From Candidatus Moraniibacteriota bacterium (GTDB lineage Bacteria > Patescibacteriota > Minisyncoccia > Moranbacterales > UBA1568), in contig JBPOHW010000001.1 of NCBI GenBank assembly GCA_052035095.1, forward strand, positions 108,857-172,856: 64,000 nucleotides of DNA, written 5' to 3'. A program made the position numbers and the translations under genes. Below, piece by piece: positions 5,524-61,763 of this stretch (positions are counted from its first letter, which is position 1; every line of letters starts with the position of its first letter). The notes beneath the pieces are model-generated. The model did no database searches, was not told where the DNA came from, and saw nothing but the letters and a program-made list of their open reading frames with translations.

Positions 5524-5549
5524 AGAACACCCGTTAATGTATTATCTTT

Positions 5550-5671
5550 AGGACTTCTTCACTTTGATGCAGTTCGAGGAAAAACCGAGTACCGAAATGA
5601 GGTGTATATCATAATACTCCGAATGAGGAACGGAGGTTTTGACGAAGAAATGCGCAAAGTGAGGAAGTCCT
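5550..5671. repeat. Intercistronic hairpin-closed element, family A/C copy A1 (17-bp closing stem aggacttcttcactttg / caaagtgaggaagtcct)
   Basis: About 85 percent identical to 61557..61677. It shares the 5' box tgcagttcgag and the 3' box acgaagaaatgYgc with the copies at 52200..52314 and 60133..60254. It starts 3 nt past the stop of the ORF at 5674 and ends 27 nt before the ugd start. Confidence 0.7.
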
Positions 5672-5673
5672 AT

Positions 5674-14203: not shown

Positions 14204-17200
14204 TTACATTCCGGCGCCCTGCACCATCCAGTAGAAATTGCTACAAGTAGTATCTCTACACCCACAGCGCCAAGAGCCGCCTTGGACACTACACGTCATC
14301 CCAACAAAGTACGCCGGTGCGCTCGCGCTTGCCGTTGAAATATTGGGGTTGGTGATCGTAGCGGAGACACTCCCCTGGCACCAGTCGCCGTTCTGGGCTC
14401 CCGTGCAGGTTCCCGTATATTGTGTCCAGGCACTTCCGGTGTAGTAGTAGCCCTTGGTATAGACGATCCGTGTCGTGTCACCCGTTTGTCCGAGAGTCGC
14501 TTGGATGGTATGCGGGTCGGATGATAAGCAGGTGGCATTTATGAGGTTCGTGCTCGTTTGGAACGCATCAAACGGCGCGCCGTAACTGTCGTAGGCGGAT
14601 TGGGAGAAGTTCGCGGTTGTCACGGTATTGCAGGGGGTGAAGGTGCCTCCGCTTACATATTCATCCGCGCCAATATCGATGCCGCCTCCTTGAGGACGGG
14701 TATGGCCATCGAAGTCATCAGTGAGCCCGGAAATACTCGTACCGGCATTGTTCGCCGAGGTGGTACCGCTTGCCAAATGAAGATCGGGAAGTGAGGCGTT
14801 TACAAACCAACTTGATTGAGCATTCGTAATATTATTCGAGAGTGTTGCCGCTGCCCCATCTCTCGCCTGTATCGCTTTGTTGGTAAGGTTGTTTCGAATC
14901 ACGAGACCGGAACTTAGAGGAAAGCGGTACTCGATGGCGTTCGGGTAGGTGTTTTGCATGAAGATCGTGTTGTTGTAGATTTGCGTATTCGGACTCTCAT
15001 CCGCCTCGATCGCGACATCGGCGAAAGAACCGTTGCCGCTTGCGTGATAGATCATATTGTTGCGGATAATGCCACGGAGGTGCCCGCGTCCCTGCACGAG
15101 ACCGAACCCGATACCGCGATCGCAATTGATGATGAGGTTCTTTTCGACGAGCGTGTCTTCGGAATTGCTCCAGAAATGAATGGCATGTTCTGCGACCGAT
15201 CCGCTGGGGCTGATGATATTCTTGAATGTATTACCGCGCACGATCCAGTTCTTGGCATTATGCGCGTCGATACCGCCCGTGTAGTATTGTCCCGCCTGTC
15301 CCGAAGTGAATTCAAAGAGAGAGTTTTCGACGAGACCATTGTCAGATCCGACCGTACTCGTATCGATATAGGTTACTTTGAGCATTTGTTCCCACGCGTT
15401 TCGAAATACCATATTCTTTGCCGTGAAATTGTCGCGATTATTCTCGCCGACCACTTGGATGAGATGCCAACCGACCCGTTGAAGCGTCATACTTTCCGCC
15501 GTGAAGTTGTTGGCATCTACCCGGAAAATCATCTTGACGCTCGCGCTTGATGTCATGGCGTCCCCCTGGAGGACGACGGTGTCTCGATTTCCCGATTGAC
15601 TCTTTATGGTCATATTGGGAGCGGAAATGGGGAGCATATCCGAAAGCGTATAGGTGCCATCAGCAATGAGAATAGTTGTCGAACACGAGGGATTGCTGTT
15701 TGCCGTATTCACGGCATTTGCGAGTTGGGAAACACTGTTTACGGTGACAGTGTTGCAGACGGTTCCGCCGCCACCCGATTGTGTGGTCGCACCCACGACA
15801 TTGCTCCAGCCGGAAAGATTGCCGGCGGCATCGGTCGCGCGGACATGGTAGTTATAGAAGGTATTTGGAGTGAGGCCGGAGTCGACGAAGGGAGAAGCAG
15901 TTGGCGTGCCGACTTGGGTGAAGTTGGAACAGCCCGTGCCTTGGCACCGTTCCACGATGTAGCCCGTAACGGCAACGTTGTCGGTGGCGGCGGTCCAGGT
16001 GACGGAGATGCTACTGGAAGAAGGAGCGGAAGCGGCAAGATTCGTGGGAGAAGTAGGGGGTGTCGTATCGCCGCCTCCTCCACCACTGTTCCCCTTCACT
16101 TCCACGGCGGCCAAAGCCCAGGTCATGCCGGTCGGTGCCGTTATTCCAATCGTTTTGTTGCCAGCGCTCCCGGCATTCGCATAGTAGCCGGCTTCGACAC
16201 CGTAGGTACTGCCGTCGGCATAGGCGCTCGTTTCAGTGAAGGTTCCGGCTTGCGAAGTATTGTAGGTTCTCGCTCCCGTTCTTGCGCTCCAGTCGCCGTT
16301 TACCATCACGATGCTTGAGTTCTCACCAACGCCGTTCAAGGTTAGGGTCGGGTTTCCGGTTGCGCTGTTCGCTTGCGCGGTCACACCAATGCCACTCGCG
16401 TTCCTGAAGTGGAGAACATCGCCGCCGAAGTTGCCGCCGTCATTGGTGAAGGAGACATTCACATTGGTTTGATTGCTCGCAACGTTCATCGTCCAGAGAC
16501 GGAGGAAGGTGAAGTTTGAGGCAGAGATCGTTTGGCGGAGGGTCCAGGTGCCAGTGAGGGTGCCAATCGGAGGAGTGGCTATCGTGGTGCTGGAACTTTC
16601 ATTCACGGCATAGGCGACGAGAGTGTCGCCAGACTGGACAGAGAAGTTAGTGGTCGTCTTTGGGGAGGTACTCGTATTCCACGCGGTTTCGTATTCAGAG
16701 ATAAAAGTGGGAGACGGAGGCGCGACTGGCGTTGTTGCGGAAGAAATATTTGAGTAACCAGAGTTGTTTCCGGCAGCGTCGGTGGCGCGGACTTGGTAGC
16801 GGTAGAGAGTGGAGGCAGAGAGTCCCGTGTCGGAGTAACTGGTGGAGGTTTGGGTGCCGATTTGGGTGAAGTTCGTACAGGAAGCGCCGGAGCAGCGTTC
16901 GACTTTGTATTGAGTGACTCCGACATTATCGGTAGAAGCGGTCCAGGTGAGGTTAATCGTGCTAGAAGAAGAGGCTGTAGCGGAGAGGTTGGCGGGAGTT
17001 GAGGGAGGAGCGGTGTCGGGAGCTTGAGTCGTTGCTCCAACCACATTGCTCCAGCCGGAGAGGTTGCCGGCAGCATCAGTGGCTCGGACGTGGTAGTTGT
17101 AGAAAGTGTTTGCCGTGAGACCAGTGTCCATAAATGGAGAGGCGGTCGGGGTGCCGACTTGGGTGAAATTGGAACAGCCCGTGCCTTGGCAGCGTTCGAC

Positions 17201-18460
17201 TATGTAACCTGTCACTCCAATGTTATCCGTCGATGCCGTCCAAGAAACGGAGATGGAAGATTGGTTTGGGGAAGTCGCGGCGAGGGTGGTCGGGGAAGTG
17301 GGAGGGGAGGTGTCGGGGGTGGAAGCGCCGGAAACTTGATAGACGTGAATCTCCGGATTGTCCCCATAATTAAGGGCAATATATATTCGTCTTGTCCCAG
17401 GATCATATGCAAGACCAGAAAATGTCATCTTTGCACAACTGTCATTTGGTCCCGGAAGTGTCCACCACGTGTAGGGTCTGACCTGATGGGGCTGTTTCGT
17501 TCCATTCTTTACCGCAAGCAGTTCATTTGCATCGAAAGCGGTCACTTGTCTTCGATAGGGTGCTGCCCCTTCACCATTAATCCCACCACATCCACCGTCA
17601 TCTTGTTTGTACGTAGGTGGTCCATAACCATGACGCCCGATGTACAGCACCGAGCGATAGCCAGAAGGAAAAACTAATCCCGCTGTGTAGTAGTCGGATC
17701 GCGAATAATAATTATTGGCAACATTCGCGTTATCGAGCGGGTTGGCCAAGGTATAGTACATCAATGGGATACTGGGAATGGGAGTTGTCACATTTACATC
17801 GTCCGGGTTAAAGACATAAAAGGTTGGACCGTTTGCGGAAACACTGTTAATCGACATGGGACCACTGCAGGTGAACGCCGGCCCACCCAACAACAATTGC
17901 CATTCCGGCGGAATTATTCCCATGCAACCGTTCCCGTACGCAGCGCTATTTAGGTTAGCCATACCGCGAAAAGTACTAAAACCACCAATATTCAGATTCC
18001 CAACGGCATGAGTCGGTCCACCCCCATTCGTATCATACGGAATTCTTTTTTGAACGATGAGACGACCATTGTACACAAATGCCCCTGAGAGCTCGGTGGT
18101 ACCGCTCCCAACAGACCCCGGAATACTAACCGGATCCTGAATCACCGTAGTTGAGCCACCAAGTGTCGCTGGTATAGCAATACGACCAAGGCTTTGGTTG
18201 TAGACATGGCCGCCCATGTAGAGACTTTGTCCGTCTGCACTCACAGCGAGTCCCATACCACCGTAAGCAAAAGAATTGGCAGAGCTTCCGGAGCCGGGAT
18301 TTGGAACGGTAAACTTCCCAAGATAGGTAAGATCACCTTGCTGAAGAAGCGACTGCGTGGTTGCATCGGCAAAAACATACTGACCCGAGAACATAGCAAA
18401 CAGAATTGCAAAAACAAAAATTAACACCCCAACCGGACATCTTAGCTGTTTCATACGCAA
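14204..18460 (-). CDS. Giant secreted/surface protein: signal peptide, N-terminal domain, three fibronectin-III domains and a right-handed parallel beta-helix (pectate-lyase-like) domain
   Basis: 1418 aa with the signal peptide MRMKQLRCPVGVLIFVFAILFA. Three FN3 repeats (about 80 percent identical at the DNA level). Beta-helix repeat signatures (NMTIKSQ.., IRNNMIYH.., NNTIFMQ..). Confidence 0.8.
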   Translation of the reverse strand: MRMKQLRCPVGVLIFVFAILFAMFSGQYVFADATTQSLLQQGDLTYLGKFTVPNPGSGSSANSFAYGGMGLAVSADGQSLYMGGHVYNQSLGRIAIPATLGGSTTVIQDPVSIPGSVGSGTTELSGAFVYNGRLIVQKRIPYDTNGGGPTHAVGNLNIGGFSTFRGMANLNSAAYGNGCMGIIPPEWQLLLGGPAFTCSGPMSINSVSANGPTFYVFNPDDVNVTTPIPSIPLMYYTLANPLDNANVANNYYSRSDYYTAGLVFPSGYRSVLYIGRHGYGPPTYKQDDGGCGGINGEGAAPYRRQVTAFDANELLAVKNGTKQPHQVRPYTWWTLPGPNDSCAKMTFSGLAYDPGTRRIYIALNYGDNPEIHVYQVSGASTPDTSPPTSPTTLAATSPNQSSISVSWTASTDNIGVTGYIVERCQGTGCSNFTQVGTPTASPFMDTGLTANTFYNYHVRATDAAGNLSGWSNVVGATTQAPDTAPPSTPANLSATASSSSTINLTWTASTDNVGVTQYKVERCSGASCTNFTQIGTQTSTSYSDTGLSASTLYRYQVRATDAAGNNSGYSNISSATTPVAPPSPTFISEYETAWNTSTSPKTTTNFSVQSGDTLVAYAVNESSSTTIATPPIGTLTGTWTLRQTISASNFTFLRLWTMNVASNQTNVNVSFTNDGGNFGGDVLHFRNASGIGVTAQANSATGNPTLTLNGVGENSSIVMVNGDWSARTGARTYNTSQAGTFTETSAYADGSTYGVEAGYYANAGSAGNKTIGITAPTGMTWALAAVEVKGNSGGGGGDTTPPTSPTNLAASAPSSSSISVTWTAATDNVAVTGYIVERCQGTGCSNFTQVGTPTASPFVDSGLTPNTFYNYHVRATDAAGNLSGWSNVVGATTQSGGGGTVCNTVTVNSVSQLANAVNTANSNPSCSTTILIADGTYTLSDMLPISAPNMTIKSQSGNRDTVVLQGDAMTSSASVKMIFRVDANNFTAESMTLQRVGWHLIQVVGENNRDNFTAKNMVFRNAWEQMLKVTYIDTSTVGSDNGLVENSLFEFTSGQAGQYYTGGIDAHNAKNWIVRGNTFKNIISPSGSVAEHAIHFWSNSEDTLVEKNLIINCDRGIGFGLVQGRGHLRGIIRNNMIYHASGNGSFADVAIEADESPNTQIYNNTIFMQNTYPNAIEYRFPLSSGLVIRNNLTNKAIQARDGAAATLSNNITNAQSSWFVNASLPDLHLASGTTSANNAGTSISGLTDDFDGHTRPQGGGIDIGADEYVSGGTFTPCNTVTTANFSQSAYDSYGAPFDAFQTSTNLINATCLSSDPHTIQATLGQTGDTTRIVYTKGYYYTGSAWTQYTGTCTGAQNGDWCQGSVSATITNPNISTASASAPAYFVGMTCSVQGGSWRCGCRDTTCSNFYWMVQGAGM

Positions 18461-20807: not shown

Positions 20808-21638
20808 TCATCCGCCAATATATTTCCTCATAATGTCTCGGTAATTTCGGCAAAAATCCGAGACAAATGTTTGGTCGGGAAAAAAGTTTCTGAGATCATG
20901 AGCCAGCTTGTCAGCCGTGACGTCACGCTCGATTTTTTTTCGCAACTTTTCTTTGAGTTCGGCTTCCGTCGCGATACCGGTTGTCTTTTGGAGACTTGAG
21001 AAATCGGGAGACACACCTCGCTCCATATACCAGAAGAGATCAAAAAAATCGCGACCTTTGATATCTATCTCATTGTCTTTGCCCTGAAACCAACTGCGGG
21101 ACAGAATGGCATTCACCTTTCCGGTCATCAAGAACGGGAGGCTGTATCGTCGCACGACGAAATTGAACCCGGCGCGAAAAATCGGATCCACTTCCACGGC
21201 CGGAGAAAGAAACGCCATCTTGCTCGGCTCTATTTTCACATATAGTTGATCGCTTTCATGCTCTCTCGCCAGACCAAGCGCTTTCAAAATCGGAAATTTC
21301 ACATAGATTCGCTTTTCTTCCTGCCGTTTCGCCACAACTGAAAGGAGATACTTTTCTTTGAAATATATCTCCAGCTCTCGTGCCATTTTTTCCAGAGGCA
21401 ACTCCTTCCAATCCTTCTCAAGAAGGTCGAAATCCAAATCCTCGCTCAATCGAGGCGCCGAAAAACAAATACGAAGACACGATCCGCCGGTAAAAATGAA
21501 ATTCCGGTACTCGCGACCGTTGTAGACAAACTCCAAGACCGGATACTGCAAATACTCCTTCAAGAAATTCCGTATGACAAAATCCGGCATTCCTTCTCGC
21601 CGCTTGTCCGCGACTATTTTTTTGAGAATTTCAAACAT
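20808..21638 (-). CDS. abiEii: AbiEii-family nucleotidyltransferase toxin (type IV TA / abortive infection)
   Basis: NTase motif FTGGSCLRICFSAPRLSEDLDFD (the GG[ST]xL...R[LF]SEDxDF signature of DUF1814/AbiEii). It overlaps the upstream antitoxin gene by 8 nt. Confidence 0.7.
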   Translation of the reverse strand: MFEILKKIVADKRREGMPDFVIRNFLKEYLQYPVLEFVYNGREYRNFIFTGGSCLRICFSAPRLSEDLDFDLLEKDWKELPLEKMARELEIYFKEKYLLSVVAKRQEEKRIYVKFPILKALGLAREHESDQLYVKIEPSKMAFLSPAVEVDPIFRAGFNFVVRRYSLPFLMTGKVNAILSRSWFQGKDNEIDIKGRDFFDLFWYMERGVSPDFSSLQKTTGIATEAELKEKLRKKIERDVTADKLAHDLRNFFPDQTFVSDFCRNYRDIMRKYIGG

Positions 21639-22269
21639 AGTGGAGCGTTCGTATGATATCCGCGACCCGTTTCATTCGCTTGTTTTCGGAGAGTTTCACA
21701 AACTCGGAAAATTTTTTGAATTCGCTTCCTGAAAAATTTTCCCAATTGAGACGAAGATTCTCAATCGTTTCCGAACTCACATTTCTGTTTTTGAAAAAAT
21801 ACAAATACAAAAAATCAAAGAGCGCTTTTTCTTTGCTCGCCTCATAAAATGTCGCGCCGGAGAAAGACTTTACGTCATAGCCGCAAAAAAGAGCCTCTCG
21901 AACGGACGCGTATCGAAAGGTTCCCAGCTCATTGGTTATTTCGCGCGTGGACTTGGGAGTGACGGAGGTGATGACGGATGCCGGTTCGCTCATTATGCGA
22001 TGCGCGTCCAAAACATATTCGAGCGAGAGGTATGACGGCTCGACCATTTTCCCCGCAAGATACGCGAGGTAACCGGCTTTGTCCGGTTCTTTTTCGTATC
22101 GTTCCCGAAGAATATACAGACCCTTCTTGAGCGATATCAACGCCCCATTCCGGAGCCACGATTTCACGTTTTCATTTAGCCGGTGCTCATTAGGCTCAAA
22201 CGCGCGCAGGATGTTTTTGTTGATGATGAGAAGATGAGAAATGCGCTTTTCCAGTTCGTCGAGACGCAT
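21631..22269 (-). CDS. abiEi: AbiEi-family antitoxin/transcriptional regulator
   Basis: N-terminal wHTH-like region with the KKGLYIL motif typical of AbiEi_4, directly upstream of abiEii. Confidence 0.6.
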   Translation of the reverse strand: MRLDELEKRISHLLIINKNILRAFEPNEHRLNENVKSWLRNGALISLKKGLYILRERYEKEPDKAGYLAYLAGKMVEPSYLSLEYVLDAHRIMSEPASVITSVTPKSTREITNELGTFRYASVREALFCGYDVKSFSGATFYEASKEKALFDFLYLYFFKNRNVSSETIENLRLNWENFSGSEFKKFSEFVKLSENKRMKRVADIIRTLHYV

Positions 22270-24357: not shown

Positions 24358-24385
24358 CGGACAAGCGTAAAAACAAGGTGGTGTT

Positions 24386-24427
24386 GGTAGTGAGTAGTGA
24401 GTAGTTGGTAGTGAGTAGTGAGTAGTT
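24386..24427. repeat. Two tandem 21-nt direct repeats (ggtagtgagtagtgagtagtt) in a divergent promoter region, followed by a -10-like TATACT
   Basis: Exact tandem duplication seen in sequence. TATACT at 24429..24434 lies 22 nt before the ATPase start. A related 17-mer, tagttggtagtgagtag, recurs at 37023..37039. Confidence 0.6.
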
Positions 24428-24455
24428 GTATACTAGAGACACCTAACTCTCCATC

Positions 24456-28110: not shown

Positions 28111-28138
28111 AAAACCCCGCAACGCGGGGTTTTGTGTT
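28111..28138 (+). terminator. Rho-independent terminator (ccccgc-aac-gcgggg followed by a T-run)
   Basis: GC-rich 6-bp stem extended by A/T pairs, followed by ttttgtgtt, 110 nt after the 28000 stop. Confidence 0.7.
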
Positions 28139-28139
28139 A

Positions 28140-28312
28140 AGAGCCTGTCTGAAAACTCCATATTCTGCTACGATTTCCAAATTTTGGCTGCAAAACATTC
28201 AGATTTCGTCAGGTTACCTTCGGGTAGCCCTTCTCAACCTTCATGTTTTTCGCTCAAAATTTGAAAATCTCGCGACGAAAGAGAGTTTTCAGACAGGCTC
28301 TAAAGTTTTTTC
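28140..28312 (+). ncRNA. Candidate small structured RNA: 19-bp closing stem around about 125 nt, with an internal UUCG-tetraloop hairpin, ending in a U-run
   Basis: agagcctgtctgaaaactc (28140) pairs perfectly with gagttttcagacaggctct (28283). It is followed by aaagttttttcgg. Internal hairpin ggttacc-ttcg-ggtagcc. It lies in a 520-bp convergent intergenic region that has no convincing ORF. Confidence 0.4.
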
Positions 28313-29497: not shown

Positions 29498-30700
29498 TTA
29501 AGAATGAGGAATTTTGGTTTTTAAGAAGTGCGCGTATTCGTCGTCTTTTGCATTTTTCGTTGTATATTTTTTGAGTGTCGTTTCTCGCGCTTTTCCTCCC
29601 ATACTTTTTCGAAACATTGCATCGGAGATAAGCCGTTCGAGCTTCTCGCGCCACTCATTCTCGTCTTTCGCGACATATCCGTCAATGCCATCGGTAATCG
29701 CTTCACAAAACGTACCGGTCGCCGCGGCGACCGTCGGCACACCAACTATCCCCGCTTCAAAAAATTTGAGCTCGCTCTTTGCCTCGCAAAAGGGATCGCC
29801 GATTTCGAGGGGCGCGATATTGACATCAACGCTCGCCAGATTCTTGAGATGCTCCGCGCGCGGCGCGTAGGTCACACGAGAAATTCGATCCGAAAAGGCT
29901 TCGAGCTCCAAGGGGAGCGAGAGTGGACCGGCAAGGAAGAGTCGAAGATTTGGACGCGCATCAAGAAGTCTCGTGAGAACACTTGCCACCGTCGCAAAAT
30001 CCCGATCATGCCCCGTCGACCCGCTGAAATAGCCAATGACGACGTCGGCTTTCTTTGGCACATTGCCTAATTCTTTATTCCTTATTCTTACTTCCAAAAT
30101 CGCTTCCGCGATTTTTATGTCTTCTTCACTCAGGCGATTCGGGACGACGAAAACCGGTTTGCCGAATTTCTTGAGTCTTTCAGCAAGAAAGTTGGTACTC
30201 GTCGTAATCGCCGCGACGAATGGATCTTCGAGAAATTCGCTCCCGACACCATGCTCGTACTGTTTCTTTTCAAGGGCATTCATCGCCTCATAGGCGGCGG
30301 TTCGCTTGAAAAGCTCGCCATCAAACACCAAGTCATCCGTATCAAAAAGAACCGTCTTCTTTTTTTCTTTCAACGCGTGAAAAAATTTCTTGATCACTAG
30401 CGTCCATGAGGTGCGATGAAAGATACAGACAGAGAACTTATCGGCGTATCGAACAAGAAACGGATTATCCTGCGTTGTCACCGATATTTTGAAACCATTG
30501 AAGCGAAGCATTTCCGCCATATGATGACATCGATACCGCGCACTATCCCCGACGCCGCTCGCCACAAAGAGAACGTCACCCGAACCGACAGAGCGAAAAA
30601 GCGAGCACGCCGAAAAAAGAATTCGTTTTCCACCTCGAACAATTCCCTCGTGCTTTATAATTGCCCACACTTTTCCAAGTTTTACGAGCGAAAAATTCAT
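29498..30700 (-). CDS. Glycosyltransferase, GT-B fold (GT1/GT4-like)
   Basis: 400-aa protein with a C-terminal Glyco_trans_1-like region (GIVGVPTVAAATGTFCEAITDGIDGYV). Confidence 0.75.
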   Translation of the reverse strand: MNFSLVKLGKVWAIIKHEGIVRGGKRILFSACSLFRSVGSGDVLFVASGVGDSARYRCHHMAEMLRFNGFKISVTTQDNPFLVRYADKFSVCIFHRTSWTLVIKKFFHALKEKKKTVLFDTDDLVFDGELFKRTAAYEAMNALEKKQYEHGVGSEFLEDPFVAAITTSTNFLAERLKKFGKPVFVVPNRLSEEDIKIAEAILEVRIRNKELGNVPKKADVVIGYFSGSTGHDRDFATVASVLTRLLDARPNLRLFLAGPLSLPLELEAFSDRISRVTYAPRAEHLKNLASVDVNIAPLEIGDPFCEAKSELKFFEAGIVGVPTVAAATGTFCEAITDGIDGYVAKDENEWREKLERLISDAMFRKSMGGKARETTLKKYTTKNAKDDEYAHFLKTKIPHS

Positions 30701-30716
30701 AGCGATAATATTGAAC

Positions 30717-30888
30717 GCGAAAGATTCGCTTATTTGGCTAAGAGAAAGAAATTAACGGAGGGGCGGGCGAACTTACAGAAACCACAAACGAAAGCTTCTT
30801 TGAGAGGTTATTTCCATCCATAACACACAAACTCGCCTACCAAGCCCCGGAGCATTTCTTGAACGTGACAAATAAGCGAATCTTTCGC
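30717..30888. repeat. Intercistronic hairpin-closed element, family B copy B1 (20-bp perfect closing stem gcgaaagattcgcttatttg / caaataagcgaatctttcgc)
   Basis: About 135-nt core nearly identical to 32228..32358. It fills the whole spacer between the M23 peptidase stop (30896) and the GT start (30700). Confidence 0.7.
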
Positions 30889-30895
30889 AATACAT

Positions 30896-32176
30896 TCACA
30901 AATACTTTGCCGGATTGATATGCGCGCCGGTCGGAATCATAAGATTTTTGATACTCTTCGATTCAACAACATCAAACGAAGCGCTGCTATACACGCCAAA
31001 GTGCACATGGGGTCCCGTCGAATAGCCCGTCGAACCCATAAGACCGATTTTGTCACCGCGCTTCACACCCTTCCCTTTCGAAACAAGTTGTTTACTCATA
31101 TGCCCATAGAGCGTCGTCAGGCCGTTTTTGTGTTCGATGGCAACCCATTTGCCGTAGGCATACTTCCCATTGTCGCCCGTTGCGATTACCTTGCCATCCT
31201 CGGCGGAAAGTATCGGCGTGCCCGTGCTATCGGCAAAGTCAATCCCATTGTGAAAGGTATACCAACGGGTGAACGTTGTCTTGCCATATCCTTGACTCTT
31301 ACGCGGATCCTTGACCGGATACCCTAAAACGCCCGACCCAAAACCGGGAATAGAACTCAAGTCTATCTTCCCCGCCCGCGCGGCGTCCAATTCTTCGATT
31401 TCATCCTCGATCGCTTTTCGCTGTTTCTCCAGATCGGAAATAACCGCCTCATACTTCGTCTGCTCCGCCGATGCCTGTGCCGCGAGCGTTTCTTTCTTTC
31501 GTTTCGCGCTCTCGAGATAGGAGTTTTGCTGTTCAAGACGAAGCTTGACACTCTCTATTTCCACTTTTTTCTCGCGCGCCAAATCCTGCTCCCGGAAGAG
31601 CGTGTCGCGAAGACTCACCACCCCCGAAAGTGTCTCTCGAATGCCGCTTCCAAACTCAAACAACCGATCGCGCGCAGAAAAAAGATGTTTTGTTTCTTCC
31701 GAAGACGCGAGCAAAAACGAGGGAAGCGTACCGGTCTGCGTTTGAGACTCATAATACGAACGGAGGATATCGGTCAAAAAACGCTTCTGCGAAACAATCA
31801 TTTTCTCTTTCTCTCCGATGCGCGACTCGAGCGATTCTATCTCCTGTCCCAAATTCGCGAGCTTCCGCTCATTGTCGGTGATATTCCCCTCGAGCGCGCT
31901 CGACTGTGCGTCGAGCCGCTTCGCCTCCGTCACCAACTGCGCCTCTTCTTTTTCTTTCAGGGTAACCACTTTTTTGAGAGTTTTTATTTTGTCACCCAAA
32001 AGATCATATTTGTCATCAAGTTGGTCGCTTCTTTTATCAAGGGCATCTTTCTGATCTTGCGTAAGCTCTACCGCATAAACAAAAGATGTTTCACAAACAA
32101 AAACAAAAACCGCACTCACCGCCACGGAAAGTTTCAAGAAAATATCCCACACTGTTTTTTGCCGCGTTTCCTTCAT
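30896..32176 (-). CDS. M23-family peptidase with an N-terminal TM helix and a long coiled-coil (EnvC/NlpD-like)
   Basis: C-terminal M23 motifs HNGIDFA and GSTGYSTGPHVHFGV. The start is taken at MKETRQK, which has a GAGG RBS; the annotated extension to 32227 reads through repeat B2 and is rejected. Confidence 0.8.
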   Translation of the reverse strand: MKETRQKTVWDIFLKLSVAVSAVFVFVCETSFVYAVELTQDQKDALDKRSDQLDDKYDLLGDKIKTLKKVVTLKEKEEAQLVTEAKRLDAQSSALEGNITDNERKLANLGQEIESLESRIGEKEKMIVSQKRFLTDILRSYYESQTQTGTLPSFLLASSEETKHLFSARDRLFEFGSGIRETLSGVVSLRDTLFREQDLAREKKVEIESVKLRLEQQNSYLESAKRKKETLAAQASAEQTKYEAVISDLEKQRKAIEDEIEELDAARAGKIDLSSIPGFGSGVLGYPVKDPRKSQGYGKTTFTRWYTFHNGIDFADSTGTPILSAEDGKVIATGDNGKYAYGKWVAIEHKNGLTTLYGHMSKQLVSKGKGVKRGDKIGLMGSTGYSTGPHVHFGVYSSASFDVVESKSIKNLMIPTGAHINPAKYL

Positions 32177-32193
32177 GATGAAATCCTCAAAAA

Positions 32194-32374
32194 CGCTTTC
32201 GCATTTGGCAAACCTGCTTGCCGGCAAGGCAGGGAGAAAGAAATTAACGCAGCGGCGAGCAAACCTACGAAAACCACAAACGAAAGTTTCTTTGGGAGGT
32301 TATTTCCATCCGTAACACAAAAACTCGCCTACCAAGCCCCGGAGCATTTCTTGAACGTGCCGAATGCGAAAGCG
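32194..32374. repeat. Intercistronic hairpin-closed element, family B copy B2 (16-bp closing stem cgctttcgcatttggc / gccgaatgcgaaagcg), with an extra internal hairpin
   Basis: Same core as B1 but a different closing-stem sequence that still pairs. It carries an inserted palindrome cctgcttgccggcaaggcagg, which resembles cctgccttgccggtaggcagg at 2269..2292. It lies between the gltX stop and the peptidase start. Confidence 0.7.
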
Positions 32375-32406
32375 TTTTTGTATATCACAAACCAGACTTC
32401 TTCCCA

Positions 32407-33915
32407 TTATACCATTTTTTCAAGAAGCATTTCCGCAGACTCAATGCGTCGGAGTGTCGCCGCCTTCCCAATCACCCACGCGATTTCAAAGGGCGGCGGC
32501 GACTGCTTCTCACCCGAGAGCGCGACACGAAGCGGCCAGAGGAAATCACCCTTCCTCTCCCCCGCCACTTCAAGGAGTGTCGGTTCCAATCGCTCCCGCG
32601 TCCACTCACTTTCGGAAAGAGACTGCATCGTATCACGCATTTTTTTGAGCGCCTCGCGCGTTTCTTCCGGCGTATTTTGTTTCCACGGAAGAAGCGCGGG
32701 ATCAACCGTCGGCTCAAGAAAGAAAAATTTCACCGCATCGCCGACATCGGAAAGTTTTTGGAGTCGCTCCTGTTCTATCGAAAGCGCTCTTCGCACAAAG
32801 TCCGCTTTCCTCCGCTCCGGATCCACAGTCTCGAACCATGTTTTTTTCTCGAGAAACGAAAGCGCTTTCATCAGAAAATCATCAAGCGAAAGCTTTTTGA
32901 TATACTGCGCGTTGAGCCAATCCAGTTTCTTTGCATCAAAGACCGCCCCACCCTTGTGCACATGCGCGAGATCAAAAGCTTCGACAAGTTCATCGAGCGA
33001 AAAGATTTCTTGCGTCTTCCCCTCACCGGGATTCCATCCCAAGAGCGCGACGAAGTTGAGGAGCGCCTCCGGAAGATAGCCTTTCTCCAGATAGTCCTCG
33101 ACCGCCACATCGCCCTGGCGCTTGGAGAGCTTGGATCGGTCGGGATTGAGGAGAAGTGGCAAATGCGCAAACTGCGGGATATCCCATCCGAACGCTTCAT
33201 ACAGAAGTATATGCTTCGGCGTCGACGGCAACCATTCTTCCCCGCGAATCACGTGCGTGATACCCATCAAATGATCGTCGACGACATTCGCCAGATGATA
33301 CGTCGGAAAGCCGTCGGACTTTACCAATACCTGATCATCAATCGCCTTCCGCGAAAACGAAACCTTCCCGCGCACGATATCGTCAAAGGTAATCTCTCCC
33401 GCTCCTTCAACGCGAAGCCGCACAACATGCGGCGCGTTTTCTTTCAACCGCTCGGCAACCCCTTCTTTTGAGAGTTCTCGACATTTCCCATCATACCGCG
33501 TCGGCTCCTTGCGCGCCTCCTGCTCCTTTCGCACCGCTTCGAGCCTTTCAGCGCTACAGAAACACCGATACGCCTTTCCCCTCTCTATCAACTCCTCCGC
33601 GTATTTCTTATATATTTCCAGCCGTTCCGACTGCACATACGGCCCGAAATCTCCGAAATTTTGAATTTTGAATTTTGAATTTTGAATTTGCATTACCCCT
33701 TCGTCCCAGTTGAAAAACATTCCGAGTGTTGCGAGCAATTTTTCCGTCGCGTCTTCCACGAACCGCTTCCGATCCGTATCCTCGATACGCAAGACGAATG
33801 TTCCGCCGTGTTTTTTGGCAAACAAATAATTGTAGAGCGCCGTCCGAAGACTCCCCACATGCAAATACCCCGTCGGCGACGGCGCAAACCGCACCCGCAC
33901 TGTTTCATGTTTCAT
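32407..33915 (-). CDS. gltX: Glutamyl-tRNA synthetase
   Basis: N-terminal motif RFAPSPTGYLHVGSLRTAL (HIGH-class) and the KMSKS-like region. 502 aa. Confidence 0.9.
   Translation of the reverse strand: MKHETVRVRFAPSPTGYLHVGSLRTALYNYLFAKKHGGTFVLRIEDTDRKRFVEDATEKLLATLGMFFNWDEGVMQIQNSKFKIQNFGDFGPYVQSERLEIYKKYAEELIERGKAYRCFCSAERLEAVRKEQEARKEPTRYDGKCRELSKEGVAERLKENAPHVVRLRVEGAGEITFDDIVRGKVSFSRKAIDDQVLVKSDGFPTYHLANVVDDHLMGITHVIRGEEWLPSTPKHILLYEAFGWDIPQFAHLPLLLNPDRSKLSKRQGDVAVEDYLEKGYLPEALLNFVALLGWNPGEGKTQEIFSLDELVEAFDLAHVHKGGAVFDAKKLDWLNAQYIKKLSLDDFLMKALSFLEKKTWFETVDPERRKADFVRRALSIEQERLQKLSDVGDAVKFFFLEPTVDPALLPWKQNTPEETREALKKMRDTMQSLSESEWTRERLEPTLLEVAGERKGDFLWPLRVALSGEKQSPPPFEIAWVIGKAATLRRIESAEMLLEKMV
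33646..33682. repeat. Microsatellite (ttttgaa)x4-5 inside the gltX coding sequence
   Basis: Tandem heptamer seen in sequence. It encodes QIQNSKFKIQNF, in frame, in a surface loop region. Confidence 0.6.
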
Positions 33916-34834: not shown

Positions 34835-35887
34835 TTATTTCATTTCCTTGTTTACCTCCCTTTCCAGCTGCGCAAAACGATCGAAATCACTCTCAAAAAG
34901 TCGGTCTTGTACGATGCGATATTTTTCGAATTCCATCTCAGCAAACTCTCTGGCGAGTTCGTGTGTCACCTTTCCCGCATCGGATAGCACCGCCCGATCC
35001 GTCATACGAATAAATCGATCCAGTCGTTCGTTCCAATCCGCCATCGTCATGGGAATGTGGCGCGATGCCATATCTTCCGCCAGATCCAAGTAAGCGGAAA
35101 CCATTCGTTCCAAAGAAAAAAGCTCTTGCTTGGTGAGATAATTTTTCGCCACCGAAACATCGAATTTTTGAATCTTTCCGTCCGGAGCGTCTTTCCAACT
35201 CGTCAGTCCCATACGATCCTTGTCGGCACGAGCTCGCGAGACAATCACCTCGGCGGCCGTTTGCCCATGAATAGCCCAGTGAAGTTTATTCTGCACGGTC
35301 GCGAAAAATTTCTTCGTCGTTTCCGCGCTCCGATCATAGTCGATCGCGGTAGCATAAATATCGGTGATCTTCTGGTAAAACTTTCTCTCCGAAAGTCGGA
35401 TTTCTCGTATACGAGAGAGGAGCTCTTCGAAGAATTGTTCTGTTAAAACGGTTCCGCCATTCTTGAGGCGCTCATCATCCATGACAAAACCTTTGATGGT
35501 AAATTCTTTCACGACATCGCGCGCCCATTTGCGAAACTGCACGGCTCGTTCGTTCTCTATCTTGAAACCGACCGAGATAATTGCCTGCAGATTGTAATGC
35601 AAGGCATTGTATTTTTTGCCATCCGCGGCAGTTATCCGGAATTTCCGGATAACTGCATTTTCGTCCAGTTCACCACTTCTAAAAAGATTTTTCAGGTGCT
35701 CATTTATCGTTCGAACGTCTACGTTGTAGAGTATCGCCATTAGTCTTTGCGTCAACCAGATATTCTCATTTTCATAGCGAAGTTCGACCGCCGTTTCTTG
35801 CTCTCCAATGGCCGATACATAAGTCAAATACTCCGCCGCCGACGAACGAATAGTCACTGCTTTCGTTTTTTTCTTTCGATTTGCCAT
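34835..35887 (-). CDS. RhuM-family protein (Virulence_RhuM-like)
   Basis: Conserved central block AIISVGFKIENERAVQFRKWARDVVKEF, typical of the RhuM family. Confidence 0.55.
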   Translation of the reverse strand: MANRKKKTKAVTIRSSAAEYLTYVSAIGEQETAVELRYENENIWLTQRLMAILYNVDVRTINEHLKNLFRSGELDENAVIRKFRITAADGKKYNALHYNLQAIISVGFKIENERAVQFRKWARDVVKEFTIKGFVMDDERLKNGGTVLTEQFFEELLSRIREIRLSERKFYQKITDIYATAIDYDRSAETTKKFFATVQNKLHWAIHGQTAAEVIVSRARADKDRMGLTSWKDAPDGKIQKFDVSVAKNYLTKQELFSLERMVSAYLDLAEDMASRHIPMTMADWNERLDRFIRMTDRAVLSDAGKVTHELAREFAEMEFEKYRIVQDRLFESDFDRFAQLEREVNKEMK

Positions 35888-35913
35888 AATTTCTTGTTGA
35901 CATGAAGCATCTA

Positions 35914-36624
35914 TTACTGTCGCTCGATATATTCCCCTATTTTCTTTATGGAGTCCGATTCCTCGGAAGTTTTATTCAGTTTTACTGTAATATATCCTAA
36001 GAGTTTTTCTAATTTTCGGTTTAACGCATTTGAGTCGATACCAATTTCATTATTAGAAGACATACAGGCTACATCTCTTTGATCATAAAGTAGTACTAGA
36101 GAAACAAAATCCGTACCAGGAACAAAATCTATTCCAAGAGCACCTCTTATCTTTGGCGTGAATTCATGAGCAAGCTTATTTCTAATACGACTAATTTTTT
36201 TTATTAAATCATCAGTAATCCCCGTGATATGTTTTGTGTCTCTAAGAAAATCCTGTAGACATTTTCCACTTCTTTTCTCTAACTCTCCTGACCGTGGAAG
36301 ACGAAAGCTTGAAAAATATTTTTCACATGCCGTACATGCTTTTAATTGTTCTTTTGCTTTTTCTTTTGCTTTCTCTAATTGTTGCACTTCCCCTGCGCTC
36401 CAAAAATCACCTGATTTACCTTCAAGAATAGCATCAATCGTACCCAAGAACTCTATCGTTGCAAGGGTGGAGAGTAATATTGTGAAATTCCCCCCACCTA
36501 TAGACATTTTCTTATCATCCTCCCGAACTGTTGGCACACACTTTGCATACAAATAAGTATTGCCGTCAGCAATACAAAATCTCACTGTCTCTGAAATGCT
36601 TCGAATAATTTGCTGTTTGCTCAT
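35914..36624 (-). CDS. Hypothetical AT-rich orphan protein with an R-x4-H (HEPN-like) motif; candidate abortive-infection/defence effector
   Basis: 236-aa ORF whose local GC is clearly lower than its flanks. The motif IRNKLAHEF fits the HEPN Rx4-6H signature. It is adjacent to RhuM. Confidence 0.4.
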   Translation of the reverse strand: MSKQQIIRSISETVRFCIADGNTYLYAKCVPTVREDDKKMSIGGGNFTILLSTLATIEFLGTIDAILEGKSGDFWSAGEVQQLEKAKEKAKEQLKACTACEKYFSSFRLPRSGELEKRSGKCLQDFLRDTKHITGITDDLIKKISRIRNKLAHEFTPKIRGALGIDFVPGTDFVSLVLLYDQRDVACMSSNNEIGIDSNALNRKLEKLLGYITVKLNKTSEESDSIKKIGEYIERQ

Positions 36625-36728: not shown

Positions 36729-37460
36729 TCACAAACTTTCCCTCTTCAATTGATCCACACATACCGCTACCGGAAACACCACTACCGCTCGCCAGATTCG
36801 TCGCCAGCGTTTTGGTTGGAGGAAAAGTCGCCAGAGCCACTCAACGCCGAGTACGCGAAACACTTTCGGAGCACGCGGGAGCTTCCCCGTGAGAAAATCA
36901 AACGCGCCGCCGACGCCTATCGCAAGTCTCACCGAGTTCGCCCGTCCCCGCAAGGACTCGAGGAAGTATTCTTGGTCGGGGGCGCCGAAATTGGAGAAGA
37001 CGATAGGGCAGTTAGTAGTTAGTAGTTGGTAGTGAGTAGTTTTTTCAGACTGCTGTCCATATATTTTCAGTTTTGGATATTTTTTGAGGAGGGCGGCTTG
37101 AATTTCTTTGAGAGAGGAGAGTCCATCTCTCTTGATAGCGAGAAAAACTGAGAGATTTCGCGTTTCCGCTTCTTTTAAGATTTCGTGCAGAAGGTCGGCG
37201 CCCGGAAAACGCTCAATATGTTTTCCGTACAGCCACCCGGCAAGCGTGATGCCGAACCCGTCCGCCACGCGAAGATCAGCCCTCAAAAGATTCTCTTTGA
37301 ATTTCTCATCCTCCCTCGCCCGAAGCAAAAACTCCGGTCCCACGGTCGCGATACGAAAGAAAGAATTCCCTGTAAAAATTGATCGGACGCAAGAAAGAAC
37401 CTCTTTTTTTGAAAGACTCGATAAGGGAATCCCAAAAAAGAATCTTTGCTCTTTGTTCAT
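36729..37460 (-). CDS. WecB/TagA/CpsF-family glycosyltransferase (N-acetylmannosaminyltransferase-like)
   Basis: N-terminal and C-terminal blocks match the TagA family (LRADLRVADGFGI; GVGGAFDFLTGKLPRAPK; GVEWLWRL). The start is taken at MNKEQRFFFGIP. The loop before the second half is encoded by the tagtgagtag repeat. Confidence 0.7.
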   Translation of the reverse strand: MNKEQRFFFGIPLSSLSKKEVLSCVRSIFTGNSFFRIATVGPEFLLRAREDEKFKENLLRADLRVADGFGITLAGWLYGKHIERFPGADLLHEILKEAETRNLSVFLAIKRDGLSSLKEIQAALLKKYPKLKIYGQQSEKTTHYQLLTTNCPIVFSNFGAPDQEYFLESLRGRANSVRLAIGVGGAFDFLTGKLPRAPKVFRVLGVEWLWRLFLQPKRWRRIWRAVVVFPVAVCVDQLKRESL

Positions 37461-40617: not shown

Positions 40618-40708
40618 CGCCGAGACCACAAAAAATAATTTTTCGAAACTTCGCTCCGAGCCCAACGAGGAGTGTGTGAGAAAAAATATTTTTTGTGGTT
40701 GAGGCGAC
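40618..40708. repeat. Intercistronic hairpin-closed element, family E copy E1
   Basis: Shares about 60 nt of core (aaacttcgctccga...gaggagtgtgtgagaaaaaatattttt) and the terminal boxes cgccgagacc / gaggcgac with 41741..41833. Its closing stem is ccacaaaaaata / tattttttgtgg. It lies between def and fmt. Confidence 0.6.
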
Positions 40709-40729
40709 TAAAATTCCACTCCAAAATCA

Positions 40730-41740: not shown

Positions 41741-41833
41741 CGCCGAGACCGTGAATCCCGCCTTGGCGGGACGAAAGTTTGCTCCGATAGAGAGGAGTAT
41801 ATGAGAAAAAATATTTTTCGCGGTCGAGGCAAC
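41741..41833. repeat. Intercistronic hairpin-closed element, family E copy E2
   Basis: Same boxes and core as E1, with a different closing stem (gaccgtgaa... / ...ttcgcggtc) and an extra internal hairpin cccgcc-ttg-gcggg. It lies between fmt and the rhodanese gene. Confidence 0.6.
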
Positions 41834-41883
41834 TCTCAAAGAAGCGAGAGTGAGAATAATTCAACAAAGCGCTCGCTCGATTT

Positions 41884-51760: not shown

Positions 51761-52150
51761 CTAGGTCTTCTCCGCCGCCTTGCGTCGCCCGCTTCCCATG
51801 GTTTTTCGAACATTGCCGCGAATGGTACGCGTATTGGTCTTGGTCCGCTGTCCGCGAACGGGAAGGTTTTTCTGGTGACGCGTCCCGCGATAGCATCCGA
51901 TTTCTTTGAGCCGCTTCACGTTCATTTTGACCGCGTGCCGAAGCTCGCCCTCGACCCGATATTTCTTCTCAATGGCATCCCGCAAACGATTAGCTTCTTC
52001 GATCGGAAGATTTTTCGATCGAATGTCGGGACTGATCGAGAGCTCGCCAAGAATCTTCCGGCTCGTCGTAATGCCGATGCCGTAAATATAGGTGAGCGCG
52101 ACTTCAATGCGCTTCTCGTCAGGAATGTTGATACCGGCAATACGAACCAT
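51761..52150 (-). CDS. rpsM: 30S ribosomal protein S13
   Basis: Start MVRIAGINIPDEKRIEVALTYIYGIG. Confidence 0.9.
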   Translation of the reverse strand: MVRIAGINIPDEKRIEVALTYIYGIGITTSRKILGELSISPDIRSKNLPIEEANRLRDAIEKKYRVEGELRHAVKMNVKRLKEIGCYRGTRHQKNLPVRGQRTKTNTRTIRGNVRKTMGSGRRKAAEKT

Positions 52151-52199
52151 AAAATTCTCTTTAACAATAACCGCTCATTACTTTCTATTTCGCCCGAGG

Positions 52200-52314
52200 A
52201 CATTCATCTTTGAGTACAGTTCGAGACGCAGGTGAGGAGCGGGGCAAGCTTTATGTAAACATACAGTGTCAAGCACCGGAACCGGCAACGAAGAAATGTG
52301 CCAAAGATGAATGT
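52200..52314. repeat. Intercistronic hairpin-closed element, family A/C copy C2 (closing stem acattcatctttg / caaagatgaatgt), filling the rpmJ-rpsM spacer
   Basis: Core gagtacagttcgaga...gaggagcggggcaagctttatgtaaacatacag...acgaagaaatgtgcc aligns with 60133..60254, and through the 5' and 3' boxes with the A copies. It abuts the rpmJ stop codon. Confidence 0.7.
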
Positions 52315-52315
52315 T

Positions 52316-52429
52316 CTACCCTTGTCGTTGCTTGTGTTTCTTGACGGAGCACACCACAAAGAGCGTCCCTCTCCGTTTTACCACCTTGCAGTGAGCGCAC
52401 ATTTTTTTGACCGATGCTCGAACTTTCAT
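52316..52429 (-). CDS. rpmJ: 50S ribosomal protein L36
   Basis: My own translation of the minus strand gives [37 protein letters not shown], the C-x2-C...C-x4-H zinc ribbon. It is too short to appear in the ORF track. Confidence 0.8.
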
Positions 52430-60132: not shown

Positions 60133-60254
60133 AGAACCTTCAAAATTCGGTGCAGTCCAAGGCGCAATCGAGGAGCGGAGTAAGCCGTATGTAGTCATAC
60201 GGTGTCGAGCACCGGAAATTGCAACGAAGGAATGTGCCGGATTTTGAAGGTTCT
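60133..60254. repeat. Intercistronic hairpin-closed element, family A/C copy C1 (18-bp closing stem agaaccttcaaaattcgg / ccggattttgaaggttct); the right arm overlaps the ftsA stop codon
   Basis: Core aligns with 52200..52314 (cgaggagcggagtaagccgtatgtagtcatacggtgtcgagcaccggaaattgcaacgaaggaatgtgcc). The arms have a different sequence but stay complementary. Confidence 0.7.
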
Positions 60255-61512: not shown

Positions 61513-61556
61513 ACCGACAAGAAATAATCAATCACCAATTCTCAATTTCCAAAAAT

Positions 61557-61677
61557 AGGACTTCCTCACTTTGATGCAGTTCGAGAAAAAACCGAGCAAC
61601 GGAAGGAGGTGTATGCGCAATACTTCGAGTGAGTAGCGCAGGTTTTGACGAAGAAATGCGCAAAGTGAGGAAGTCCT
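61557..61677. repeat. Intercistronic hairpin-closed element, family A/C copy A2 (perfect 17-bp closing stem aggacttcctcactttg / caaagtgaggaagtcct)
   Basis: About 85 percent identical to 5550..5671. The one stem difference relative to A1 gives a G-U pair instead of G-C. It ends 45 nt before the ftsA start. Confidence 0.7.
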
Positions 61678-61763
61678 AAAAAAATAACACCACGCAATGT
61701 GAAAGCAATTCAATCACGAGTACAGTATACCACAATTTACACTCACCCGTATCGCCCTGGCAA

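Follow-up and report, generated by a model that had tools for sequence, protein, structure and literature searches.

Two palindromic repeats in the gltX-peptidase-glycosyltransferase operon of a Moranbacteria genome as probable copies of a dispersed intergenic element

The described systems that come closest to element B, of which two copies (B1 and B2) are analyzed here, are the ERIC/IRU sequences of enterobacteria, the Correia/NEMIS elements (CREE) of Neisseria and the REPINs, i.e., doublets of REP sequences mobilised by RAYT. B1 and B2 lie on both sides of an M23 peptidase gene in a stretch of 64,000 nucleotides (the window, from whose first letter the positions below are counted) of a Candidatus Moraniibacteriota bacterium (assembly GCA_052035095.1, contig JBPOHW010000001.1, positions 108,857 to 172,856 of the forward strand). 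The ERIC/IRU sequences, imperfect palindromes of 127 bp, resemble B in their size range (~120-190 nt) and in their location in transcribed operon spacers (general knowledge; PMC2229807, PMC3184786, PMC10969869). They also share with B the many dispersed copies, the presence or absence at orthologous spacers, a sequence whose conservation by far exceeds that of the flanking spacer, and the lack of a known transposase and of a clear target duplication. The Correia/NEMIS elements have, like B, terminal inverted repeats around a conserved core; they are ~100-160 bp long, occur in hundreds of copies and are co-transcribed with the neighbouring genes, and their hairpin is bound or cleaved by RNase III, which changes the expression of adjacent genes (PMC2649163). 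REPINs form a long hairpin of two inverted arms and a spacer and are, as B is, intergenic, multi-copy and without target duplication (PMC3116915, PMC3733652). We consider, with a probability of roughly 0.7, that B1 and B2 belong to a non-coding insertion element of palindromic form with dispersed copies, which would be read through in the operon mRNA and occurs only in a subclade of the Moranbacteria within the Candidate Phyla Radiation (CPR). The genomes of CPR bacteria, or Patescibacteria, are ~1 Mb in size, tightly packed and contain, as far as is known, few mobile elements. In the literature that was searched, repeats of this intergenic palindromic kind are not described for CPR bacteria.

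At this locus gltX (32407-33915), the M23 peptidase gene (30896-32176, 426 aa) and a group-1 glycosyltransferase (GT) gene (29498-30700) are all encoded on the minus strand, to which the annotation of B1 and B2 also refers. B2 (32188-32380, 193 nt) fills the spacer from the gltX stop to the peptidase start and B1 (30717-30888, 172 nt; 203 bits with the covariance model of the family) the one from the peptidase stop to the GT start, as had been reported in a preliminary description of this DNA. The almost identical core reported there was found as well, with 90% identity over 132 nt between 30742-30873 and 32234-32365. It includes the 31-nt block C1, CACGTTCAAGAAATGCTCCGGGGCTTGGTAG, which is near-invariant across copies and is located at 30837-30867 in B1 and at 32329-32359 in B2. 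Both elements are closed by a paired stem. On the gene-sense strand the 5' arm of B1, GCGAAAGATTCGCTTATTTG (30869-30888), is complementary at 20/20 positions to the 3' arm (30717-30736), and the 5' arm of B2 (32358-32380) is 96% complementary to its 3' arm (32188-32210) over 23 nt, so that the B2 arms are longer than first described. The TTTTT behind the arm is present, on both strands. Three core probes, allowing up to 3 mismatches, detected no third copy of the B core in the window.

The listed open reading frame (ORF) of the peptidase starts at a TTG at 32227, and its first part (32177-32227) runs into B2. Homologues of 426-431 aa start at the ATG corresponding to 32176, which is the true start, and the N-terminal extension is indeed an artefact. 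The extended -10-like motif TGGTATAAT overlaps the gltX stop codon (minus strand, ~32405-32414). Similar motifs are found at the same place in relatives without B2 and may represent an internal promoter of the peptidase gene.

Homologues of the peptidase assign the window to Candidatus Moranbacteria / Moraniibacteriota. The order gltX-peptidase-GT-epimerase is the same in relatives with a 63-67% identical peptidase (L023, a closed 1.09-Mb genome, L024 and L025), where the gltX-peptidase spacer measures 0-31 nt and the peptidase-GT spacer 11-13 nt. In L005 (peptidase 90% identical), L006 and L007 (79%) and L012 (77%) the gltX-peptidase spacer spans 58-61 nt and contains neither a hairpin nor the core. 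Orthologous spacers empty of B were found in L005, L006, L012 and L023-L026, the empty one of L006 being that at the B2 position, and no B follows the peptidase gene in L005. L006 (GCA_041920175.1) carries a B copy in the peptidase-GT spacer, i.e., at the B1 position, closed by a 19-bp stem of another sequence. Because relatives with the same operon have spacers of 0-61 nt without the element, B1 and B2 are insertions, and since the spacers of the closer relatives carry neither hairpin nor core, B2 including its arms was inserted in the lineage of the window itself. This shows that the gltX-peptidase-GT-epimerase operon was compact ancestrally and that both elements entered its very short spacers. 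Landing of the core in the loop of a pre-existing terminator hairpin was considered and rejected, as the empty orthologous spacers contain no hairpin. Further upstream, a RhuM-family gene and an unknown ORF (34835-36624), together with murI, are located between WecG and gltX in the window; in the more distant relatives L023 and L024 WecG stands directly before gltX.

The B family comprises at least 12 copies, which lie between unrelated genes in the window (B1 and B2), in one related metagenome-assembled genome (L006) and in two metagenomes (L014-L020 from JGI sample 3300028804, including a second copy on L018 named L018b, and L021). A single metagenome scan with a 21-mer of the core recovered eight true copies, of which ERZ724505 contributed one and JGI sample 3300028804 seven. 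The 12th, L018b (L018 6063-6250), has a 1-nt insertion at the probe site and was picked up by the covariance model trained on the copies. With an arm of 19-23 bp, a core of ~128 nt and the complementary arm, the element is ~165-195 nt long, and every further copy keeps the closing stem. The genes flanking the copies are mutually unrelated (HlyD/AcrB, a GH130 phosphorylase, unknown ORFs). The peptidase, the GT, AcrB or unknown ORFs follow downstream, and one copy lies downstream of the GH130 gene.

These neighbours bear on the function first proposed, namely control of the peptidase and GT genes by B as a leader, attenuator or terminator specific to this locus. UUUUUG after B2 and after the L006 copy and the position of the elements immediately upstream of both genes agree with such a role. 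However, the same element stands between unrelated genes, with no constant association to a gene family or pathway as a gene-specific leader or riboswitch would have, and orthologous spacers of relatives lack it. Unlike in an intrinsic terminator, the loop enclosed by the closing stem is not small but about 128 nt long (126-150 nt), and a U-rich tract follows only ~5/12 copies. Scans of B1 and B2 found no canonical terminator or promoter, only a 5-bp mini-hairpin inside each B1 arm. Regulation specific to these two genes is thus contradicted, and we regard it as very improbable.

In a strain with a 99% identical peptidase, contigs begin inside B2 and terminate inside B1, exactly in the conserved blocks, and five contigs of the L006 species terminate inside its B copy. 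Breaks of this kind usually mark a repeat that cannot be bridged by short reads, and their position at B1 and B2 confirms that the window sequence is not a mis-assembly. The B family model (R1) gave no match in the more distant relatives, and searches of viral contigs and of phage and plasmid records yielded no B copy. No family of Rfam 15 matches B at the gathering threshold, and with E values up to 10 only a spurious PhrS match beside B2 appears. A scan of genome contigs with CCGGGGCTTGGTAGGCGAG returned 4 chance matches only, the pattern having spanned a variable position. Searching for exact matches to proteins of the window returned none. One model-made alignment (A5) misplaced the insert-carrying copies and was set aside.

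A simple recent segmental duplication does not account for the two window copies, as the GCCGCTGCG variant and the 21-nt insert of B2 also occur in the L019 copy from another metagenome. This insert is the optional GC-rich palindrome CCTGCCTTGCCGGCAAGCAGG (32213-32233), whose resemblance to a sequence at 2269-2292 had been noticed before and is borne out by the matching sequences. A palindrome of 20-21 nt is found at exactly the same site, between TTTCTC and TTTGCC, in B2, L017, L019 and L018b; its removal recreates the sequence of the uninserted copies, and L016, the orthologue of L017, is without it. The same palindrome stands, in plus orientation, just inside the right arm of an unrelated hairpin at 2180-2319. 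As judged from these comparisons, the palindrome is a separate module, gained or lost at one fixed site.

The arms of B1 and B2 had been taken as unrelated in sequence, which is not the case. They are diverged homologues with 50-61% identity and a common TTCGC..ATTyGG beside the core, and the arms of all 12 copies fit the loose consensus rAGAcTTCCGTATTTGGCAC. Conservation is good over the inner ~10 bp of the arm and the outer half varies freely, B1 and B2 being the most diverged pair. Each of the 12 copies has arms of 18-23 nt with 0-2 mismatches. That the stem is kept by compensatory change was substantiated with the 12 copies: across 18 pairs, 98.1% of the cells are paired and 11/18 pairs have changes on both sides. 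The covariation score was matched by none of 500 shuffles, and when the partner was slid by 1-3 columns as a control, pairing fell to ~50%. At the orthologous loci L016 and L017, which come from two strains and are 83% identical in nucleotides throughout the region, each arm differs at 4-5 of its 18 positions, and the sole uncompensated change is one G-U. A sigma-54 promoter, hinted at by TGGCAC, was rejected because the spacing to any GC element is unsuitable. Arms copied from the target were rejected likewise, the arms of all copies being homologous.

The core contains three almost invariant blocks, C1 (CACGTTCAAGAAATGCTCCGGGGCTTGGTAG), C2 (about GGAWGGAAATAACCTCCCAAAGAAGCTTTCGTTTGTGG) and C3 (CGCCCCTCCGTTAATTTCTTTCTC). 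C1 is identical in 10/12 copies; L021 has 2 substitutions at the 5' end and L018b a 1-nt insertion. Two stretches between the blocks vary freely, and the variable columns are clustered (permutation p = 0.002). All pairwise core identities lie within 82-91%, regardless of genome or locus. Between orthologous copies, core identity is 87.5%, compared with 65% at four-fold degenerate sites of the flanking genes for L016/L017 (Fisher p = 2e-6), and again 87.5% compared with 51% for B1/L006 (Fisher p = 8e-15). In these alignments the core looks like a sequence under constraint on fixed positions rather than one conserved by recent common descent.

Such a pattern would also be expected if B were a host-functional RNA, i.e., a trans-acting small RNA (sRNA), a protein sponge or a ribozyme, whose ~128-nt core is freed from operon transcripts by cleavage of the closing helix and uses the 31-nt block as working surface, with mobility being secondary. 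The slow evolution of the core relative to neutral sites at orthologous loci and the alternation of invariant blocks with stretches diverging about neutrally would fit this function. So would the bias towards sense orientation (11/12 copies co-oriented with the flanking genes, binomial p = 0.006) and the G-U pairs in the candidate helices P3'/P4, which pair on the sense strand only. Whole B1 and B2 fold far better than shuffles on either strand, including the minus strand proposed for folding in the preliminary description (z -4.5 to -7), owing to the arms. Once the arms are removed, the core has no advantage over shuffles in 5/6 copies, whichever strand is folded (z +0.3 to -0.9; L016 z -2.4). 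The two core helices that are always predicted, AAGAAAU/AUUUCUU and GGGGC/GCCCC, never vary and are therefore uninformative. No covariation was found among the copies in the core, P2 and P3 show no compensated changes, and the B2/L019 variant disrupts the second core helix (P3) without compensation. By these predictions the core makes no convincing case for a structured RNA. Taking into account that copies are gained or lost between close relatives, that one copy (L020) is antisense and that Rfam contains no match, we consider a host-functional RNA unlikely.

Known RNAs and coding functions were also considered for the core. 6S RNA, Y RNA and retron non-coding RNA (ncRNA) were rejected on account of the copy number, the variable loci, the lack of a reverse transcriptase (RT) or Rsr nearby and the missing Rfam match. 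No ORF is conserved in B, as substitutions and indels that shift the frame have removed the ORFs of 14-15 codons from several copies, so that a small protein gene was rejected. A template/variable repeat pair of a diversity-generating retroelement was rejected too, since the differences between B1 and B2 are not adenine-specific and the repeats lie outside coding sequence.

The distance from the preceding stop codon to a copy is 7-26 nt, with 96 nt in L021, and that from a copy to the following start codon is 11 to ~30 nt, with 63 nt in L015. With regard to an insertion element, several observations speak against our interpretation. At the 12 border pairs there is no target-site duplication, conserved dinucleotide or common flanking motif. 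Among the ~45 ORFs of the window no transposase, reverse transcriptase, HUH enzyme or RAYT was found, and in the loci examined the arm motif flanks no ORF, i.e., there is no autonomous element with matching ends. Mobility is therefore deduced from presence and absence only. The core is conserved better than the terminal repeats, unlike in a classical MITE (miniature inverted-repeat transposable element), and the L020 copy lies antisense inside a HlyD-AcrB operon, both genes of which were confirmed by Pfam. Furthermore, the similarities of arms and cores are discordant (alignment A4, 11 copies): L014 and L019 have 94% identical arms and 83% identical cores, whereas B2 and L019 have 90% identical cores and 72-78% identical arms. 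This discordance suggests, as far as the alignment goes, recombination or conversion between B copies, and part of the conservation at orthologous loci could be due to gene conversion instead of selection acting copy by copy. Finally, the imperfect pairs of the stem are 4 G-U and 3 A-C on the gene-sense strand, without a strand signal, and do not indicate on which strand, or on RNA or DNA, the constraint acts. The stem could thus be kept at the DNA level, and cleavage by RNase III, proposed below by analogy, is conjecture.

A function at the DNA level would account for some of these points. B would then be a single-stranded DNA hairpin or cruciform recognised and moved by an enzyme of the HUH/Y1 type, similar to REPIN-RAYT or to the PATE-like elements of IS200/IS605, or a protein-binding or recombination site, and its arms would be kept by repair within the hairpin. 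The missing target-site duplication and the symmetry of the stem mismatch types between strands agree with it, as does the nested, REP-like GC palindrome. Many arms of the superfamily begin with (G/A/T)TAG, which recalls the REP tag (PMC3733652), and the orientation bias could track replication, nearly all genes of the window being co-oriented. However, neither RAYT nor TnpA is encoded among the window ORFs, no conserved tetranucleotide stands beside the B arms, and REPs are conserved with variable spacers, which is the opposite of B. A DNA-level element therefore seems to us quite unlikely.

Compared with the known systems, the dispersed insertion element that we favour differs from each of them. 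It has no sequence relationship to ERIC, which belongs to a different phylum, and its core is not a continuous palindrome; the arms vary with compensation and the core blocks are invariant. In Correia elements the 26-bp terminal repeats are conserved, the target TA is duplicated, and an IHF site as well as promoters at the ends are present, in contrast to B, whose arms vary, which shows no TA duplication and in which a scan of B1 and B2 detected no promoter-like site. In REPINs the REP arms are conserved and the spacer is free, whereas B is reversed, and the constant GTAG/CGTC tag beside the arms is missing from B, just as a RAYT is from the window. With MITEs B shares the small non-coding format (165-195 nt), the terminal inverted repeats and the dispersed copies with presence and absence, but not the target-site duplication (12 border pairs). 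Since B lacks this duplication and reverses the conservation pattern of the REPINs, it would be placed outside any named family, as an apparently undescribed family of the broad kind of bacterial intergenic palindromic repeats.

B1 and B2 are not the only palindromes of the window. At loose settings 38 inverted repeats were counted, compared with 8-19 in shuffles, which is more than chance predicts; those whose arms reach 16 nt or more with no more than 2 mismatches number 8, all of them intergenic. In addition to B1 and B2, long hairpins are present in at least six other spacer positions. Family A consists of rod-like hairpins of 121-124 nt (5549-5672, 52197-52317, 60133-60254 and 61556-61678, with a fifth copy at 10918-11038 of L019). 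It has variable closing stems of 16-18 bp, and its inner helix covaries (GCAAUU/GAUUGC, AAAACC/GGUUUU, AGAUG/CAUCU). A member of family A is situated in the infA-rpsM interval, and these elements must therefore tolerate, or be tolerated by, transcription that reads through essential operons. Family C is a hairpin related to B in the murI-gltX spacer of L007 (1606-1756), a spacer that spans only 39 nt in the window; it scores 38 bits with the B model as a distant relative. On the sense strand, TTTGGCAC is a junction motif common to families A, B and C. Two more intergenic hairpins of 168 nt (28137-28304) and 140 nt (2180-2319), with arms of 22-25 nt, are those for which no second copy was found.

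B is probably transcribed through as part of polycistronic mRNA, because it sits inside operons, as family A does even between infA and rpsM, and has no recognisable promoter or terminator. In the mRNA the arms would pair as a long perfect helix that cages the core. By analogy with described elements, this helix would be a substrate of the type cleaved by RNase III, or a block to 3' exonucleases, and cleavage or blocking could uncouple the stability of upstream and downstream cistrons as reported for Correia/NEMIS and ERIC. The invariant blocks, which the predicted folds leave mostly unpaired, may serve as a sequence-specific site for a protein or nucleic-acid partner, either of the mobilising machinery or a host factor. 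It is also conceivable, though we think it improbable, that B, A and C represent a domesticated RNA module of ultra-small bacteria, in which RNase III would excise a ~128-nt RNA that acts in trans or binds a protein. If this were true, they would form a new class of multi-copy ncRNA with a variable 20-bp helix kept by selection and a 31-nt near-invariant block, spread without target duplication. At least eight hairpin elements make up ~2% of the 64 kb and reside inside essential operons, including the ribosomal-protein region. They account for breaks in short-read assemblies and for false ORF extensions such as the peptidase N-terminus. The combination of a conserved core with compensating arms makes B a tractable case for selfish versus host-recruited repeats.

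The only Rfam match above threshold in the window is an Alpha_RBS at 52118-52222 on the minus strand (38.3 bits, gathering score 38). The match, which may be spurious, runs into the end of the family A element that lies upstream of rpsM. Several other features were recorded in the window. At 20808-22269 an AbiEii-type toxin gene is followed by an overlapping unknown ORF, which may encode its antitoxin. Short tandem tracts of GTAGTGA/GTAGTTA-like units are present at 24372-24440 and 36993-37054. A 43-nt repeat with 86% identity flanks fmt (40618-40709 and 41792-41834), its first copy being part of an 89-nt hairpin. In an ORF of 1418 aa with fn3 domains, three internal repeats of 232 nt were found at 15779-17255.

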